64,000 bases of DNA from a virus: IMG/VR virus record IMGVR_UViG_3300031576_000023, positions 21,329 through 85,328 of that record. One strand, 5' to 3'. Position numbers and translations under genes: made by a program. Positions 531 through 49,055 of the stretch are shown in pieces; within the stretch, counting starts at the first letter, position 1; the number at the start of each line of letters is the position of its first letter. Below the pieces are notes generated by a model, which searched no databases, was not told where the DNA came from, and was given only the letters and a program-made list of their open reading frames with translations.

Positions 531-1088
531 TCATTTCACAACGTATCTGGCGCGCACGTGTCCGCGGGCTTTCATCCACTCGGCCAACGACGTTGGCCCC
601 TCCGGCCCGGTCGGGTCTACGGTGAGCACGGCCAGCAGTCGGCCGTAGGTATCGTGTTCCCTCGCGACAGGCGAGGCCGTCACGTTCTCCGCGCTGGCCA
701 GCAGGGCCTGGAGGTCAACGGTCGCCAGCTTGCCCAGGCGGATTTCCTCGTCGGTGACCTCGACGCTGCGCCTGGCGCGCGTCTTCTCCCAGGCGTCGTA
801 GTCGGCGGCCCGGATGGTCCTGCCGCTGAGCGTGACGCCCCACGGCATCAGCACGTCCGCCTTGATCGTGTCGCCGTCGATAACCACCACGTTGGCGAGG
901 CGGAACTGGCCAGAAGGCTCGTCGATTGCCGCTGCTTCAAACGCTTCTTCTGGTTGCCTTTGGGCAATCTTTTGACCGAACGGCCAGCGAAGGTAGAGGA
1001 GGGCGACGCACCCAATGGAGAGCACAGAGATGAGGGTGATACCAAATCGCTTGCTAGTCAGATGGTAGGTTTGACAGCCGTCTCCCAT
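531..1088 (-). CDS. Thermonuclease (SNase) family nuclease with N-terminal TM or signal segment
   Basis: VIDGDTI, IRAADYDAWE and DTYGRLLA motifs; hydrophobic N-terminus. Confidence 0.8.
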   Translation of the reverse strand: MGDGCQTYHLTSKRFGITLISVLSIGCVALLYLRWPFGQKIAQRQPEEAFEAAAIDEPSGQFRLANVVVIDGDTIKADVLMPWGVTLSGRTIRAADYDAWEKTRARRSVEVTDEEIRLGKLATVDLQALLASAENVTASPVAREHDTYGRLLAVLTVDPTGPEGPTSLAEWMKARGHVRARYVVK

Positions 1089-1604: not shown

Positions 1605-2546
1605 ATGCGCGTCGCGGTCGTCAGCCCTTTGCCGGCAGCCCTCAAGCACGACAAGTACGCGTGGGTCGCGGAGGGCGTGCTGGACGCCGGCCACGAGTGC
1701 GAAAGGGTCCACGGGCTGCCGGCGCTTCGGCAGGCCGATAAGTCTTGCGAGTTAGTGCTGTTCTGCCAGTACGCGGGCGGCCTCAACCCGCGCGATGTGG
1801 CGGATATCACTGCCACAAAGCGTGCTACCTGGGCGGTCTGGTGGTTCGACCTGCTGGCCGTGGACGCGTCGCGCCAGCTTGCCGAGCAGGACCATGTGCA
1901 GACCTACCTGCCGTTCCTCTCGGCGATGGATGTCGCGTTCGTCAAGGAGCGCGGCATGCTGGGCGAGTATGCGGCCCTCGGGGTTCGGGCGGCCTGGCTC
2001 GACCAGTGCTGCTGGCGCGGCATGCCGATGGCGTCTCTCTCCGAAAATCCCGAATGCGACGTGCTGGTGGCCGGGCGGAGCACGAACGAACGGCGGTGGC
2101 GCGATGTGGCGCTTCTGGTGCACGCGGGGTTCCGCGTTGCGTGGCTCGGACCATCCGGCGGGGGCCGGCTCCCGGACGGGCTAGCGGCCGTGTGGCCGTG
2201 GGTCAAGCCTGAATTGATGCCTGCCTACGCCGGCAGGTGCAAGGTCGCGCTTTCCGTGGACGCAAGGCAGGACGTGGACGGGTACACCAGCGATCGCCTG
2301 CACTTGCTCTGCGGGATGGGCGCTACGACCCTCCACCGACGTGGCTGCTGGGCGCCAGACTGCCGGGCGTTCTTCTACCAGTCCGATGACGAGATGGTCT
2401 CGCTCTGCCGTGCTCTGTGCGACACGACTATTCAGTACCGGCGCGCGAACGCCTCCGGGACAAGGGCAGTCGAGATGGACCGCCACACCTACGGCGACCG
2501 CATCGGCGAGATCGTCGCCTGCTTGAGTGCGAGCTGCGCTACATGA
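1605..2546 (+). CDS. Glycosyltransferase, GT-B CgeB-like
   Basis: WWFDLL motif and GYTSDRLHLLCGMG C-terminal motif; similar to 18076..18990. Confidence 0.7.
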   Translation: MRVAVVSPLPAALKHDKYAWVAEGVLDAGHECERVHGLPALRQADKSCELVLFCQYAGGLNPRDVADITATKRATWAVWWFDLLAVDASRQLAEQDHVQTYLPFLSAMDVAFVKERGMLGEYAALGVRAAWLDQCCWRGMPMASLSENPECDVLVAGRSTNERRWRDVALLVHAGFRVAWLGPSGGGRLPDGLAAVWPWVKPELMPAYAGRCKVALSVDARQDVDGYTSDRLHLLCGMGATTLHRRGCWAPDCRAFFYQSDDEMVSLCRALCDTTIQYRRANASGTRAVEMDRHTYGDRIGEIVACLSASCAT

Positions 2547-2707
2547 TAAAGCCTTCGGATGGAACGCGATGCCTCGGCTGCCACGGCGCAGGGTCGCTGA
2601 AGCTCCTCAACCGCGCCGTGTTCCTGGCGACGGGTAGGAAGAAGTACGCTGTGATGCAGTGCCCGCGCTGCGGCGGGACAGGCAAACACGGCCTCCGTGT
2701 CAAGTGA
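2543..2707 (+). CDS. Small DnaJ-type zinc-finger protein
   Basis: CLGCHGAG and CPRCGGTG motifs; ATGA overlap with upstream gene. Confidence 0.6.
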   Translation: MIKPSDGTRCLGCHGAGSLKLLNRAVFLATGRKKYAVMQCPRCGGTGKHGLRVK

Positions 2708-3095
2708 CGGTAGTGTCCTAGGACTGTGTTGCTGCTGACGTTCGGTGCGCACGGTCCAGGCCATCAAACACCCTAGCCTGTCAGTGCATAAACATCGGAA
2801 TCTCGTACCGGAAGGCACAGGATCACAACCAACGGAGAGAATCTGGTGATCGGCAAGCAACACGGAACAGAGGAAATGCAGAGTTAGAATAAAACGGCTG
2901 GTTGCGGCGCGGGAACGCTGCAACCAGCCCGGAACGATCTAAGCCTCAGAACGTCAATCCGGAGGGATGCGCCCATGTATGGACGCACACAGTCAGGGTC
3001 CGTCTTTAGTTTAGCCAGACCGCCACCATTTGCAAACGGAATCTCACCGTGCCTGCCGACTAGACGTTGGGCCGCCGACGCAGCATACTGGTGGC

Positions 3096-3341
3096 ATGCC
3101 TAAACGCTCAAGCAAGCAGAAAGACACCCAGCAGATGGCCAGAGCCATTCTAGACCAGGTAGTGCCCGATGCCGAGCCGGCCCTGCTCACGAAGCCAGAG
3201 AAGGCCAAGAATCCGGCCGCCGTCGCGCTGGGGCGGCTGGGGGGCCTCAAAGGTGGCAAGGCGCGGGCCAAGAAGTTGAGCAAGGTGAAGAGGGCAGAGA
3301 TCGCGCGTAAAGCTGCTCGCGCACGCTGGAAGCCGGAGTAG
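3096..3341 (+). CDS. Small basic protein (KNPAAVALGRLGGLKGGKARA type), often a passenger of IS1/IS1595-like elements
   Basis: Characteristic motif; lies inside the inverted repeats. Confidence 0.75.
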   Translation: MPKRSSKQKDTQQMARAILDQVVPDAEPALLTKPEKAKNPAAVALGRLGGLKGGKARAKKLSKVKRAEIARKAARARWKPE

Positions 3342-3351
3342 GAACCGCCCC

Positions 3352-3608
3352 CTATTCGTCTTCATCGTCAACATCCGGCAGCGGTCCCGGATCGTACTCT
3401 GTGCCGTGCTCCATTTCAGCCAGGTCCGGCTCGTAGTTGAAACTCAACATGATCTGCGCCCCGTGCGGGTTATTATCGTTATACGAGTCCTGGTCGATCT
3501 TCAACTGGCGATTGGCGCCCAAGATTGCTTTGCGGCGCTGCTGAAATGAACGGTGCATGAGATCGGGAATCGCGGAGCGGTCGAACCAAAGTGTCTTTTG
3601 GACCAGCT
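3352..3608 (-). pseudogene. Probably 5'-truncated conserved hypothetical gene
   Basis: QKTLWFD...SFQQRR...QLKIDQDSYNDNN C-terminal half; its 5' side abuts a 37-nt copy of 45364-45400. Confidence 0.45.
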
Positions 3609-3666
3609 TGCAAAGGCAGATCCGCTGGGGTGGGCGAGGCTTGCTCAATTCTTGAATCGTCGACGC

Positions 3667-3718
3667 CGCAGGGACTTATAAGCCCATGCGTCCGCGTTCA
3701 ACTCCCGGCAGGTCCACC
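3667..3718 (+). other. Degenerate tRNA 3'-half (att-like remnant)
   Basis: GGGACTTATAAGCCC anticodon-like arm, CCGCG-TTCAACT-CCCGG T arm, CAGGTCC-ACC acceptor end; no D arm. Confidence 0.4.
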
Positions 3719-4180
3719 GAACTCACCGCGCCTTGCGGCCACGGTCGTTTCGCACGCTAGTATAGCAACTCGCAGAGCGGCCAGCAACACAGAGCTAGGA
3801 CACTACCCACTACACGGTAGTGTCCTAATTTGAAATCCAGCAAGACGACGAAGGCCGCTGGAAGGTGAAGGAATAGAACGGCTCGGCGACCTACGGGGGT
3901 AAGTCGCTGAGCCGCCAAGGATGAACCCCCGCTGCTGTCGTGTCGGCTGACGCCTAGGAACGCTTCCGACCTGCCAGCCTTACAAGGAGGGCCACGCTAT
4001 GCGCTGGTTTCTGCCGTTCCTGTTGCCGATCATCCGGCAACGGGACGGCTCCGGTTGAAGCCGGAAGACGCTTTGCCGCAGGGCCGAAGACCTGCGGCAC
4101 TTTCCTGCTTCCCCGTGCCCCCATCATAGAATTCGGTCCGATGCAGGTCAAACTGTAAGTGACGGAGGGCGGCCCGCGTC

Positions 4181-4954
4181 TTGCCGGTGCAGCGGCCGTG
4201 GCGGCGTGATAGAATGCACGTAGGAGGCCCTACAGTGGAACTGTGCATCGTGACCCCGACCAGGAACCGCTGGCGCTGGCTACGCAGCCAAGCCGAGGCG
4301 CTGGCACCGCAGCTCGCCGACGGCGACCTGTGGGTCGTAGTGGCGGACTCCTGCCCAGTCGACGTCGAGGTCATGGACCAGGTGGCCGGGTGGCTCGGAG
4401 AGAGGATGGCCGTAGTAGAGCTGAGCTACGCCAGACGCGGTGACCGCGGCTGCGTCAACCGCGCCAGAAACGTCGGAACCCAGTTCGCAAAGAGCAACCA
4501 GTCCATTGTCGAGGTAGACGACCACGACATTGTGACGCCTGGCTGCCTCGACGCGCTCAGGGAAGCTATCGGGTGGGCGGGCTATGTGTACGGAGACTGC
4601 CACCAGGAAGCCGTTCTGCGGAGCCCAGGCGGCGACTTTCAGTTCATCGAACCCTGGCCGGACGTGACCGGAGAATACGGCTGCGGCGGAAGGGATGTCA
4701 TCGGTGTGCGCGCCTTTCGCAAGCAGCTCTGGGACTCTCTAGGAGGCTGGCGAGAGGACGTGTGGCCGGGCGGCGACTGGGACTTTTTCCAGCGCGCGGC
4801 GCACGAGTTGGAAGGGGTTGACCCTGGTATTGTCCACCTAGAACAAGCGCTGTGCACGGTGCTCGTGGACGCCGACAGCATATCGGGGCACAACAGGAGC
4901 GCAGGTGAACAGGCTACTGGTGAACAGGCTACTGGTGAACCATGCCGATCGTAG
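4181..4954 (+). CDS. Glycosyltransferase family 2
   Basis: IVTPTRNR, ARNVG, VDDHD, LGGWRE and DWDFF motifs. Confidence 0.85.
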   Translation: MPVQRPWRRDRMHVGGPTVELCIVTPTRNRWRWLRSQAEALAPQLADGDLWVVVADSCPVDVEVMDQVAGWLGERMAVVELSYARRGDRGCVNRARNVGTQFAKSNQSIVEVDDHDIVTPGCLDALREAIGWAGYVYGDCHQEAVLRSPGGDFQFIEPWPDVTGEYGCGGRDVIGVRAFRKQLWDSLGGWREDVWPGGDWDFFQRAAHELEGVDPGIVHLEQALCTVLVDADSISGHNRSAGEQATGEQATGEPCRS

Positions 4955-5688
4955 ACATCGCCGAGGCGAAGGCCGTAGTCGGCCGGGCTACCACGATCAC
5001 TGACAGGGACAGCGAGCTGATCGGCTTGCTGCTGCCGGTCGCCGAAGCGAACCTTGAGGACCACCTGGGAATTTCTGTGGCCCAGCAAAATATCACCGAG
5101 TATTACCCGCACGATGAGGAGCATGCGATCGTCTACGACTACCAGGAAACGTTCGTGGTCCAAGGCGACAAGGTTTACATCGAGCGCGGCGAGGTGCGCG
5201 GAAGTCTGCTGCACCTGCGAAAAACTCCGGTGCGCTCCATCACCACGTTGCACGAGGACCGCGAGGGGTACTTCGGTCAAGTGGCCGGATCGTTCGCTGC
5301 GGCGACCCTGCTGGTTTCCGGGACGGACTACTACTTGGCGCTTGACGAGCCCGGCATCTCGTTCGCGGGAAACCTGTGGCGGAGATATGCGAACTGGCCA
5401 ACGCAGCTCGGCTCGATCAAGGTCGTGTACGTGGCCGGGTTCACGGCGGCAGAGCTGGCGAACAGGTACAGCGCGTTCAAGTGGGGCGCTTTGAGAACTT
5501 TCGCCGACTTGTGGAGCCGCAGCAAGGCCATGCACGGCGGGCAGCGCAGCGACCAGATGTCGAGTGAGAGCATCGGCGGCGGGGTGTCGGCCGGGTACGT
5601 GAACGAGCACCTGCGCGGCCTGCCTGTGCCGGACGACGTGGCGGACAAGCTGGCGCGGTACGAGTCATACGACGAGCTGGGAATCTGA
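4942..5688 (+). CDS. Head-tail connector (adaptor) protein
   Basis: DIAEAKA, LRKTPVRSIT and IKVVYVAGF, gp6/gp15-like pattern; gene position. Confidence 0.75.
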   Translation: MPIVDIAEAKAVVGRATTITDRDSELIGLLLPVAEANLEDHLGISVAQQNITEYYPHDEEHAIVYDYQETFVVQGDKVYIERGEVRGSLLHLRKTPVRSITTLHEDREGYFGQVAGSFAAATLLVSGTDYYLALDEPGISFAGNLWRRYANWPTQLGSIKVVYVAGFTAAELANRYSAFKWGALRTFADLWSRSKAMHGGQRSDQMSSESIGGGVSAGYVNEHLRGLPVPDDVADKLARYESYDELGI

Positions 5689-20556: not shown

Positions 20557-21606
20557 ATGAACGCGATGCTGCAAGTAGCTGACTGCGGGCCACTGGAAAG
20601 CCTGGCGACGATGTTCCGCGCGATCGGATGGGATTGCTTCGTGCCAGACGCGGGCTTGCGGGCGCGGCTCGTGGCGGCCGGCTGCGACACAGTCCTGGAC
20701 CCGGAGTTTCTGTTCAGAGAGATGGGCTACGACCGTCCGCGCGGCGTCCAGCAAAGCGGAGACCTCGACAGCATGGACCTGTACGTTGATGTCAAGGCGC
20801 AGCGCAACGCGGAAAAAGCCTGGAAGCTTCACCGGCGCTTCGAGGGTCGCACAATCTGGTATCGCATCAACGGCGGTCTGCCTGAAATAACTCCTCAAGG
20901 CGGGGACGAGCTGAACTTCAACTTTCCGATTATCACGCCGAACAGGTACTATCTCGACAGTCCCACGGCATACAAGAACCACGTCGGCTCTCGGCGGGAT
21001 GCGAACTGGGGTGGACTGGCCTACGTCATGTGGCCCCCTTTCGCGCGCGCCTCTGATTATTCTGTGCGCGCCCCGAATTACGACGGGTACTGCAATCCAG
21101 TCTGCTTGATCCACAACGTCACTGGCTGGGGGTACTCCGACCTCGTCGAGCCGCTTCGCCGAGAGGCCAGGCTGCTGTGCTTCGGGTCGCACGGCAGCCC
21201 GGACGGGCTTATCCCGCACAGCGGCGTCCCCGGACTTCTGGCCGCGGCGCTGTGCATGGTCCACCTCAAGAGCAACGACTGCCCAGGATACGCCCTCTAC
21301 GAGGCCCTGCATGCCGGCTGCCCGCTGATCGTTCCGCGCAGACTGATAAAGCGCATGCGGATGGCAGACCTGCTGGTGGAAGGCGCGACGTGCCTCTGCT
21401 TCGACATCGAGGGAGATGAGCGCGGGTGCGGCGCCCTCGACGTCGCGGCCTGCGTCGCCGAGGTCCGCGCTGCCACCAAGCAACTCATGGACTCGGCAGA
21501 GAACGAGCGAATCGGGAATGCCGGGAAGCGCGCGCTGGCCGAGCTGATATGGAATCCAGAGCGCGACGCAGAGTCGTTCAAGGCGTTTTTGCGCAGATAC
21601 GGTTGA
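20557..21606 (+). CDS. GT-B glycosyltransferase
   Basis: DCPGYALYEALHAGCPLI motif; ERIGNAGK. Confidence 0.7.
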   Translation: MNAMLQVADCGPLESLATMFRAIGWDCFVPDAGLRARLVAAGCDTVLDPEFLFREMGYDRPRGVQQSGDLDSMDLYVDVKAQRNAEKAWKLHRRFEGRTIWYRINGGLPEITPQGGDELNFNFPIITPNRYYLDSPTAYKNHVGSRRDANWGGLAYVMWPPFARASDYSVRAPNYDGYCNPVCLIHNVTGWGYSDLVEPLRREARLLCFGSHGSPDGLIPHSGVPGLLAAALCMVHLKSNDCPGYALYEALHAGCPLIVPRRLIKRMRMADLLVEGATCLCFDIEGDERGCGALDVAACVAEVRAATKQLMDSAENERIGNAGKRALAELIWNPERDAESFKAFLRRYG

Positions 21607-44992: not shown

Positions 44993-45205
44993 ATATGCAG
45001 TCGATTGGCAATTCAAACGTCCCGGCCTGGGGGGCCTCCCCCGAGGCGGACCGGTACATGGCCCGGCGGGCGAGAGAGGAAGACTGAGGGTGGACGCGAA
45101 TCCCGGCACGGCAACGGCGACGGCCGCACGCTGCGGGATAGAGGCCCTTGGGACGCCGAAAAAAAGAAGGCGGCAAGCCGGGTGTGAGCCGGCAAAAAAA
45201 CAAAA

Positions 45206-45275
45206 GTCGAAACCGGCGGACGCGAGTTCGCTGGTCCGCGCGGGATGGCCGCCCGCGCGCTGAAGAGACAGGCCA
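45206..45275 (+). ncRNA. Hammerhead ribozyme, type II
   Basis: GTC-GAAA-stem III-GTC(cut after 45236)-stem I CGCGCGGG/CCCGCGCG-CTGAAGA-GAC; loop TGGCC can pair with downstream GGCCA. Confidence 0.9.
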
Positions 45276-45315
45276 CATCAGCCCCGATTGGTGGGACAAC
45301 ACAGGAGTAACGACC

Positions 45316-45555
45316 GTGAACCGCAACGAGCGAAGAATGTGGGAGTCGACCATTCGCGCAGGCAGCAAGCCTCGCCCACCCCAGCGGATCTGCCTTTGCA
45401 CACTGTCGGCGGAGGGCATGGAAACGGAGTCGGGGCGGCAAGATTGGGACGGGATGGTCAACGATCCGCAGATTCAGCTCATGGCGAATGAACTGCGAAA
45501 GCCGATCACCATGACCGGCGAATTCGGCGTCCACGTTTGGACCCCAGTGAAATAA
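45316..45555 (+). CDS. Hypothetical protein
   Basis: ACAGGAG RBS; GTG start. Confidence 0.6.
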   Translation: MNRNERRMWESTIRAGSKPRPPQRICLCTLSAEGMETESGRQDWDGMVNDPQIQLMANELRKPITMTGEFGVHVWTPVK

Positions 45556-45629: not shown

Positions 45630-46496
45630 ATGAACGCTAGCGAGCTAACGTTCGGGATCGAGGTGGAGTGCTACATCTCGCGGGAGAATCTTCAGGCCGC
45701 CGGCTGGGAGGTCGGCGGCTACCACAACGGCCGCGAGATTCCTGATTTTGTGGGGTGGAACGCTCAGCGCGACAGCAGCCTGAACAGCCCCCCCAGCTAC
45801 GAGCTGGCAGGGGTCGAAGTAGTATCTGGGGTTCTGACGGGGGCGGAAGGGCTAGCGGAAGTGCGGCGGATGCTCGCGACCCTCCAGAGGATGGGGGCGA
45901 AAGTGAACCGCACGTGCGGGTTTCACGTGCATGTGGGGTTCGCGGGCCGCTCAGTCCAGGAGCTGCGGCGCTTGGTCTGCTTGGTCGCGAGCCATGAAGA
46001 GGCGTTGTACGCGGTTACCGGGAGTCGCGCCAGGCGCGATTCCTGCTACTGCAAATCGGTGAAGGACGGGGCGATGAATGGTTTTGCTCGCCCCGTGCGC
46101 AGTCACAGAGAGGCGTCTGGATGGTGCGACAGGTTCCGCGTGCTGAACCTCACGAATCTGCTCGGAGACTCGGCCCGCAAGCCGACCGTGGAGTTCCGGG
46201 TGTTCGCGGGGACCACGAACGAGGTCAAGATATTGGGCTATATCCAGCTCTGCCTTGGACTGGTCTCGAAGGCTGTGGCGATGCGGTCGGCGGCGCCGTG
46301 GCATAGTAGACCGGTGCACAATAAGTCGCTTGCCGGTTACGGGCCGGGCCGCACTGCGGTGTCTAAATTGCTGTGGCAACTCGGCTGGCGAGGCGATGCG
46401 GCACACCATGGGGTGCTGGACTTGGCAGGCGTGGCGAAGACGAAGACGGAGTTGTATCGGCTCGCAAAGAAGTACGACAGCGGCAGCGAGGAGTAG
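45630..46496 (+). CDS. Amidoligase (COOH-NH2 ligase type 2)
   Basis: TFGIEVE, EVVS, CGFHVHVG and TVEFRVF motifs. Confidence 0.9.
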   Translation: MNASELTFGIEVECYISRENLQAAGWEVGGYHNGREIPDFVGWNAQRDSSLNSPPSYELAGVEVVSGVLTGAEGLAEVRRMLATLQRMGAKVNRTCGFHVHVGFAGRSVQELRRLVCLVASHEEALYAVTGSRARRDSCYCKSVKDGAMNGFARPVRSHREASGWCDRFRVLNLTNLLGDSARKPTVEFRVFAGTTNEVKILGYIQLCLGLVSKAVAMRSAAPWHSRPVHNKSLAGYGPGRTAVSKLLWQLGWRGDAAHHGVLDLAGVAKTKTELYRLAKKYDSGSEE

Positions 46497-46560
46497 CCGA
46501 AACGCCCGGCAACGGGCGTCGCCGTCCGGGTGGTCCCCGGCGGCCTGAAGAGGCAAACCA
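46496..46560 (+). ncRNA. Hammerhead ribozyme, type II
   Basis: GCC-GAAA-CGCCCG GCAA CGGGCG-TC(cut after 46520)-stem I-CTGAAGA-GGC; loop TGGT can pair with downstream ACCA. Confidence 0.9.
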
Positions 46561-46576
46561 ATCACAGGAGAAGCAT

Positions 46577-48559: not shown

Positions 48560-48763
48560 ATGCAATTCGTAAGGCGAACAGAGGCTCGGCGGCGCAAGCT
48601 ACTTGGCATCAACTTGACGGAGCAGGAGTGCGCAGCGGTGGACAGCGAAGCCAAGCATCTCGGTGTTACGCGGTCGGATTTCGTTCGCACGCTCCTGGAG
48701 GAATATTTCCAGGACGCGAAGGCGGGGCGCGCGGCCTCGAAGGCGGTGCTCGATGCGCGCTAG
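48560..48763 (+). CDS. Ribbon-helix-helix (CopG-like) regulator
   Basis: GINLTEQE...AKHLGVTRSDFVRTLL pattern. Confidence 0.65.
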   Translation: MQFVRRTEARRRKLLGINLTEQECAAVDSEAKHLGVTRSDFVRTLLEEYFQDAKAGRAASKAVLDAR

Positions 48764-49055
48764 CAGTGCGATCGAATATGTCTACGACTGCGACGACGGA
48801 CGAGAGGTCCGATGCGTCGTCCACTATCGCTGGTCGCCGCCGGAGCAGCGCACCTGGCACTACCCAGGTTCGCCAGCGGAAGTGTCGGTGGTGTCTGTGC
48901 GGGCGGTGGCAGTTCGTGAGAATGGCGCGGTGCGCGAGCCTGACCTGGAGGAGCAAGAGGAGATCGAGGCCAAGGTCGCCATCCGGGCCGCCGACTACGA
49001 CTCGGAGCTGTATCGGGACATCGTGGGGCAGGCGACGGCCGTGTACGAGGACTAA
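48753..49055 (+). CDS. Hypothetical phage protein
   Basis: TWHYPGSPAE motif; acidic C-terminus. Confidence 0.5.
   Translation: MRASSAIEYVYDCDDGREVRCVVHYRWSPPEQRTWHYPGSPAEVSVVSVRAVAVRENGAVREPDLEEQEEIEAKVAIRAADYDSELYRDIVGQATAVYED

Follow-up and report, generated by a model that had tools for sequence, protein, structure and literature searches.

The window analysed here is a stretch of 64,000 nucleotides that runs from base 21329 to base 85328 of a virus record of 85,328 bp, which is classed as complete and has direct terminal repeats. It holds the same 37 nucleotides twice, in opposite orientations. Copy 1 lies in an IS1-like cassette, near the beginning of ORF A', a truncated gene that converges on a gene for a basic protein, B. 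Copy 2 lies 41.7 kb away in the early gene E, shortly after a hammerhead motif. The features of the two loci are collected in Table 1.

Table 1. Features at the two copies of the 37-nt repeat and at a second, shorter inverted pair, in window coordinates
Feature	Position	Strand	Remarks
Nuclease gene, SNase-like	531-1088	-	Host of one copy of the 23-nt pair
IS1-like cassette, left terminal inverted repeat	2709-2734	+	
Gene B	3096-3341	+	Basic protein with motif KNPAAVALGRLGG...ARKAARARW; convergent with A'
ORF A'	3352-3648	-	5'-truncated remnant of the ~175-aa Planctomycetota family A
E-derived patch, whole	3604-3667	-	64 nt, 84% to 45342-45405
Exact 37-mer, copy 1 (derived)	3609-3645	-	ORF A' codons 2-13 and one further nt; reads SKPRPPQRICLC
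IS1-like cassette, right terminal inverted repeat	3782-3807	-	24/26 vs left repeat
Third, partial IS end	3816-3829	+	8 nt past right repeat; forms 12-8-12 hairpin 3796-3827
Hammerhead_II (hammerhead 1)	45205-45277	+	Rfam; upstream of E
Gene E	45316-45555	+	First ORF downstream of hammerhead 1; 79 aa from a GTG start
Exact 37-mer, copy 2 (parent)	45364-45400	+	Codons 17-28 plus 1 nt of gene E
Early ORF	48663-49055	+	Host of the other copy of the 23-nt pair

Direct reading and a repeat search agree with the preliminary description of this DNA that 3609-3645 (+) is the exact reverse complement of 45364-45400. The pair is the longest inverted repeat that the repeat search found in the window, and with up to three mismatches allowed the 37-mer still occurs at these two sites alone; none of 100 dinucleotide shuffles contained two matches to it. 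Of the exact repeats in the complete genome of 85,328 bp, only the 127-nt terminal repeat is longer, and the next-longest measure 23, 22, 21, 21 and 20 nt. Simulated Markov genomes never reached an exact repeat of 37 nt (0/120; 60 of order 3 and 60 of order 5), their longest being 21 nt at order 3 and 23 nt at order 5. The repeat is real and beyond chance. It is not a common dispersed sequence either, with no exact match in the viral contigs, none in the metagenome contigs, and two places in its own genome. The repeat search found no direct repeats beside the 37-mer, in line with the earlier statement that CRISPR repeats are absent around 3609-3645, and no dyad symmetry is evident within it. 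The remark that mismatches stand immediately on both sides of the match is literally true, but similarity runs on past them to 64 nt at 84% (repeat search; blastn E 3.4e-12), a tract that we refer to as the patch.

A second exact inverted pair, 23 nt in length, joins 795-817 to 48979-49001; that length was reached in one of the 120 simulated genomes. The sequence encodes IRAADYD in frame in both of its host genes and has no flanking similarity. Its geometry, late minus strand against early plus strand, is like that of the 37-mer, and it lies outside the 37-mer pair on both sides.

Gene E and the native copy of the repeat

Copy 2 had been placed inside the first ORF after a hammerhead, and this is where it lies: the Hammerhead_II match is followed by gene E, which is P0008 in the genome's own gene calls. 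The GC content of E by codon position (0.57/0.47/0.74) is coding-like, the neighbouring amidoligase gene having values of 0.62/0.48/0.79. Two plus-strand Hammerhead_II motifs (45205-45277 and 46495-46562) flank E and the amidoligase gene, with a glutamine amidotransferase gene next in line; self-cleavage at both hammerheads would free an RNA of ~1.2 kb with defined ends. Searching with the amidoligase retrieved eight distant viral loci at 29-46% identity, none of them with a hammerhead near the amidoligase homologue and none with E-like or patch-like sequence.

A word-index protein search with E returned E itself alone. The full HMMER scan of 1.84 billion representatives gave five proteins at E<=0.001, E included. 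Two of these are small relatives, P0011 (86 aa, residues 1-77 aligned) and P0010 (90 aa); the long, repetitive proteins P0009 and P0012, which also matched, were left out of the family. A profile search added P0013, bringing the distant homologues to three, and all three align with E over both edges of the repeat. At the position of the repeat-encoded SKPRPPQRICLC of E, P0011 has SK-EPPRRIGAC. When the four family members are aligned with the translated patch, the sole invariant column is Cys28, the last full codon of the repeat, and the conserved core of the family, (T/I)(L/V)SA.G.E(T/S)E(S/T)G, begins directly outside the repeat. Since homology to E is continuous over both edges of copy 2, these alignments show that copy 2 is native and that E is the parent of the repeat.

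E has no match in Pfam or PHROG and none among the PADLOC defence families. Neither E as a query nor the E-family alignment found relatives in the viral contigs, and searches of the same contigs with E, A' and a connector-like ORF (4942-5688) turned up no near relatives of the phage.

The IS1-like cassette and the truncated gene A'

The surroundings of copy 1, first described as an IS-like relic, prove to be a transposase-less cassette with genuine IS ends and two passengers, A' and B. Positions 3779-3807 match, at 100% identity, the end of an IS that carries a transposase in two metagenome contigs, L030 and L033, and a degenerate terminal-repeat pattern located the IS end in six metagenome contigs. 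In L030 and L033 the IS end terminates an open frame of 379 aa, cut by the contig start, with Zn-ribbon, HTH and DDE domains; its scores against DDE_Tnp_IS1 (22.4 bits, cut-off 24.1) and Zn_ribbon_InsA (16.2 bits, cut-off 26.1) fall below the respective cut-offs. The phage genome itself has no transposase remnant, the best tblastn match to the L030 transposase having an E value of 1.1. In contigs L029-L034, IS ends also adjoin an ORF with an NYN domain or one with a SocA/Panacea domain; the make-up of these contigs suggests that this IS family often carries passengers.

The term mobile insertion cassette (MIC) is in print (for example PMC3913671). Judged by its sequence, the cassette is an element of the MIC type. 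Like MICs and MITE-like non-autonomous IS derivatives, it combines 26-bp terminal repeats (24/26) with passengers and has no transposase, and its ends, exact over 26-29 nt, terminate a 379-aa transposase gene in metagenome contigs. Its ends are IS1-like. It differs from them in lying inside a phage late operon, in its third abutted end and in the sub-threshold IS1 Pfam scores of the related transposase.

The 8-bp flanks of 2709-3807 differ from each other. A direct repeat, AAGTGACGG, is present at 2702-2710 and 4157-4165, its right copy not being beside a recognisable IS end, and the two copies enclose a 1.45-kb low-GC block that extends from the stop codon of a Zn-finger gene to a GGAGGG before a GT2 gene. 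The first 14 nt of the IS end (2709-2722) are the reverse complement of positions 1984-1997 of L023, part of a tRNA-Glu(UUC) gene in a Betaproteobacteria MAG, where by our own reading they cover the D-arm and anticodon-stem region. This match may be due to chance, or the IS ends may be tRNA-derived or tRNA-targeting. Promoter-like sites in 2500-4400, identified as consensus matches only, occur on the minus strand only; the better one, a sigma-70-like site at 4151-4123 (TTGACC, 17 nt, TATGAT; 10/12), aims leftward at the hairpin 3828-3795 and at A'.

A tRNA-like remnant had been proposed beside copy 1, at 3668-3720, and finds no support. ARAGORN reports no tRNAs and the Rfam search no tRNA match at E<=5; with the ARAGORN threshold lowered to 70% and introns allowed, a "tRNA-Ile" does appear over 3668-3720, as one of eight evidently spurious calls. 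Comparison of this interval with five Planctomycetota genomes gave no match better than E 0.11. Reading the site as an attP or tRNA fragment was rejected, there being no recognisable tRNA 3' part and no integrase.

ORF A' encodes 98 aa from a TTG at 3648, with the minus-strand translation MSKPRPPQRICLC-KLVQKTLWFDRS..., and the genome's own gene call gives a 68-aa form that starts at an ATG at 3558. Its relatives comprise seven proteins as well as 17 genome loci and one viral locus; by their record titles they are mostly from Planctomycetota, with some Verrucomicrobiae and Proteobacteria MAGs. In 16 of the 18 loci the stop-to-stop frame is 147-289 aa long (~147-205 aa save for one of 289 aa) and includes a conserved N-terminal domain, the short exceptions being L015 (124 aa) and L025 (75 aa). 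DSYNDNN and MH..QQRR are invariant motifs of the family. Homology of A' to this family starts at codon 14 (3609-3607, KLVQKTLWF), where P0003 and P0005 carry GKLVQKTLWF. Between the window and the related loci it sets in at 3609 against L012 (the best match for an intact A allele, at 72% nt identity, none being near-identical), and at 3603 against L013 and L014, which corresponds to A' codons 14-16.

The description of A' as a truncated gene is thus borne out, in that it keeps the C-terminal half of a ~175-aa family. Five full-length homologues used as tblastn queries found the N-terminal half nowhere else in the phage genome at E<0.1, and A is therefore truncated rather than split; a division of A by inversion is ruled out by the same absence. 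Family A has no match in Pfam, PHROG or PADLOC, and B matches one PHROG of unknown function, with no Pfam or PADLOC match. The convergent A/B pair recurs in 7 of the 18 related loci (L015-L019, L025 and L028), in Planctomycetota and other phyla. Immediately upstream of A in L012 lies an HTH-domain gene (Pfam HTH_3). E-like sequence was found beside none of the A homologues in the 18 loci.

The patch and the joint in A'

The patch covers E codons 9-30. The ribosome-binding site and start codon of E lie outside it, and it is therefore not a duplicated expression signal. Translated in frame it reads ASTIQELSKPRPPQRICLCKL, against ESTIRAGSKPRPPQRICLCTL in E. Taken in the sense of E, the 64 nt match in four successive blocks of 12/14, 2/8, 37/37 and 4/5. 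The first block reads GG.GTCGAC.ATTC, and the second, with its two matches in 8 nt, contains the TTG start of A'; an in-frame TAA stands 10 codons upstream of that TTG. Within the patch, ASTIQE(L)SKPRPPQRICLC corresponds in frame to ESTIRAGSKPRPPQRICLC of E, with one synonymous difference (ACG vs ACC). E and A' have A..CTG in common at the patch edge; the outer boundary of the patch lies at 3667/3668.

Divergence is unevenly spread over the patch, with mismatches at 0/37 positions in the core and 10/27 outside it (Fisher p = 5.6e-5); if the 8-nt cluster is counted as one event, the chance of four events all sparing the core is ~0.03 by our own arithmetic. The patch is the only significant match of 2400-4400 to the genome, all others having E>=0.07 save the cassette's own inverted repeats, and the further phage-derived fragments that the preliminary description had proposed to look for in the cassette do not appear at significance when this block is compared with the rest of the genome.

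The E-derived sequence stops where the A-family sequence starts, within a few bases (3609 vs 3609-3603). We consider it probable (roughly 0.6) that the E fragment was copied in at the joint where illegitimate recombination or a template switch truncated A. The late-region cassette, IS1-like and lacking a transposase, would have acquired an inverted copy of E codons 9-30 through one event of illegitimate recombination, template switching or templated insertion during phage DNA replication or repair. The same event would have deleted ~90 codons of A and left the E-derived filler at the joint, in frame with the A' remnant by chance or otherwise. Among the three options that the preliminary description had offered, a repair-junction filler fits best, because the copy ends within a codon of the loss of A homology and the donor E is intact and native; a guide RNA and a dedicated inversion switch are not supported. 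Also in favour of the filler are the mosaic setting, with IS ends that have no transposase plus a third abutted end, and the absence of flanking repeats, of Resolvase or Phage_integrase matches, of structured RNA and of any defence match for A, B and E.

Filler or templated-insertion DNA is known at illegitimate-recombination junctions of the template-switch and microhomology-mediated kinds. The joint in A' resembles such cases as a short inverted ectopic copy at a deletion breakpoint with the donor locus left intact, and its patchy match pattern recalls multi-step switching. It differs in the distance to the donor, 41.7 kb, and in its perfect core amid degenerate flanks, which is unusual. We infer that the mechanism was of this kind and that the patch has no selected function; two by-products are possible, namely inverted homology that is perfect over 37 bp and complementarity between a late plus-strand transcript and the E mRNA.

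The uneven divergence is not predicted by a single neutral copy and is poorly explained by the neutral reading; the perfect core could have been kept by selection or by later conversion. The fusion is open and in frame, and a TTG borders the core on its outer side; a functional chimera would be expected to share these features. The 23-nt pair hints at something recurrent and counts against a single neutral event. Together, the perfect core, the kept frame and the 23-nt pair keep functional readings alive.

Alternative readings and biological meaning

The patch may have been exapted as a trans-acting antisense sequence, a reading that we regard as unlikely. A late plus-strand transcript over the cassette would pair with E codons 17-28, and cleavage by a double-strand RNase would help to shut off E late, perhaps along with the amidoligase and amidotransferase genes transcribed together with it. 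To get to the connector and tail genes, late plus-strand transcription has to run through the cassette, and the reading gains from the plus-strand orientation of the genes on either side and from the lack of a plus-strand terminator-like site in 2500-4400. The complementarity is perfect over 37 nt and 84% over 64 nt, its perfect core sits inside degenerate flanks, and the 23-nt pair has an equal late-antisense-to-early geometry. However, the region 3590-3740 folds no better than shuffles on either strand (z 0.02, 0.66), the target is within the coding region and away from the start site, and there is one chance in two of this orientation. That the patch coincides with the breakpoint in A would go unexplained, and with no copy of the 37-mer in the viral or metagenome contigs, conservation is not demonstrable. 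Signs of a discrete transcript are missing, as 2500-4400 has neither promoter-like nor terminator-like sites on the plus strand. What is left of the antisense or guide RNA suggested in the preliminary description is the complementarity, with no repeats, no structured RNA and no plus-strand terminator to go with it.

A related idea, to which we give a little less credence, is that of a domesticated antisense timer, in which late read-through RNA would pair with the E mRNA and silence the hammerhead-processed early transcript. The 23-nt pair may act likewise, and selection for the duplex would then have left its mark in a core that is perfect while the flanks are degenerate. Among phage antisense RNAs, lambda OOP and P22 sar are cis-encoded at the target locus and have their own promoters and terminators. 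Antisense transcripts during infection by phage PAK_P3 are in print (PMC4933390). With OOP, sar and PAK_P3 the arrangement shares a transcript of one temporal class that is complementary to an mRNA of another; it differs from them in being an ectopic fragment of 37-64 nt that bears no sign of a discrete RNA.

We also consider it unlikely that the fusion is a functional chimera, in which the leader of E (residues 10-28) would be joined in frame to the C-terminal domain of A in a 98-aa protein started at TTG 3648, the common peptide playing one role in both proteins, for instance as a tag for partner binding or targeting. The reading frame is preserved without a stop, and similarity in that frame continues upstream (STI...SKPRPPQRICLC), with a single synonymous difference. 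A GC3 of 0.73 in the 5' extension is coding-like, and the minus-strand promoter-like site at 4151-4123 would suit expression of such a protein. Yet no Shine-Dalgarno-like sequence precedes the TTG, the 68-aa form called in the genome begins at the internal ATG, and the in-frame TAA leaves only 10 codons upstream. Moreover, the N-terminal domain of A is conserved in 16 of the 18 loci, so that its loss is probably inactivating, and it is in the leader that the E family varies.

Among sequencing runs, one DNA run, X1, was listed with this stretch and no RNA run; X1 may be the source sample. In the Logan k=31 contigs of X1, the 37-nt node has a depth of 41.6 and its neighbours 23.6 and 17.8, and a contig of 41,778 nt has the repeat at both ends. 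By contig, depths are 23.6 for the 19,613 nt left of the repeat, 17.8 for the 41,778 nt and 17.5 for a further 18,575 nt. The inflow of 23.6+17.5 exceeds twice 17.8, an excess that could stem from a gradient of packaging or coverage, or from a variant that co-occurs and shares the head region.

Invertible segments serve as switches in phages and plasmids, as with Gin and the G segment of Mu, Cin of P1 and the R64 shufflon. By analogy, the 37-mer could be the site of a 41.7-kb inversion through which, downstream of the early promoter and hammerhead, E and A' would exchange their 3' portions, either as a switch like the Mu G segment or a shufflon or through mere RecA-type recombination between 37-bp inverted homologies. 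The likeness lies in short inverted repeats within coding sequences and in frame, such that inversion swaps C-termini behind a constant N-terminus; both isomers would be open, and the X1 contig graph fits either orientation. The differences are that no gene of the recombinase families searched for (Resolvase, Phage_integrase, RecT and ERF) was found, that the segment spans 41.7 kb vs a few kb, that one partner is a broken passenger gene and that the repeat has no evident dyad symmetry. In the complete genome PF00239 (Resolvase) and PF00589 (Phage_integrase) gave no matches at E<=1, the control genomes being positive in 13/14 and 14/14 cases, and no match was found to RecT or ERF, the single-strand annealing recombinases. 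A dedicated invertase system was rejected for want of a Resolvase match. The segment is half of the genome, and its inversion would split the plus-strand head-to-tail gene run and disrupt E, whose full-length match to its family exists only in the assembled orientation. GC skew is positive across both sites, and no recombinant joints are reported in the X1 contigs, though contigs cannot show rare forms. The preliminary suggestion of a ~42 kb inversion substrate stands in that 37 identical bp make inversion physically possible, but the lack of Resolvase and Phage_integrase matches and the assembled orientation, which keeps E whole, speak against it, and we consider this reading improbable.

Still less probable is an assembly artefact, in which the contig would have been misjoined or flipped at the common 37-mer. 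De Bruijn contigs at k=31 do break at the repeat, and the depths of the flanking contigs differ (23.6 vs 17.5-17.8). Against this, the node is as deep as two copies added together, neither GC skew nor gene order is interrupted, and the 37-nt repeat is shorter than ordinary reads. The homology of E to P0011 over residues 1-77 ties the flanks of copy 2 together, which leaves only the assembled pairing for copy 1.

A CRISPR-type spacer, a mini-array or another guide RNA (omega-RNA- or bridge-RNA-like) against E is very improbable indeed: the length is spacer-like, the early-gene match perfect and the site within a mobile-element relic, but the repeat search found no direct repeats around the 37-mer, the window has no Rfam family besides the two hammerheads, there is no defence-family match, and neither viral nor metagenome contigs contain the 37-mer. 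Similarity to E overruns the 37-mer on both sides, unlike that of a spacer, which argues against spacer-type capture; the missing repeats and the overrun to 64 nt largely refute a CRISPR-type guide.

Should reads show the 41.7-kb segment flipping, the finding would matter more. The same holds if the core is under selection, with late read-through RNA giving antisense control of an early gene. Under the preferred reading, that of a filler at the joint in A', a perfect self-match of spacer length in a phage is not in itself a sign of a guide RNA, and the locus would be a case of ordinary phage mosaicism, in which a host-type IS cassette lands in the late operon, its passenger is broken and a fragment of a distant gene is left behind.
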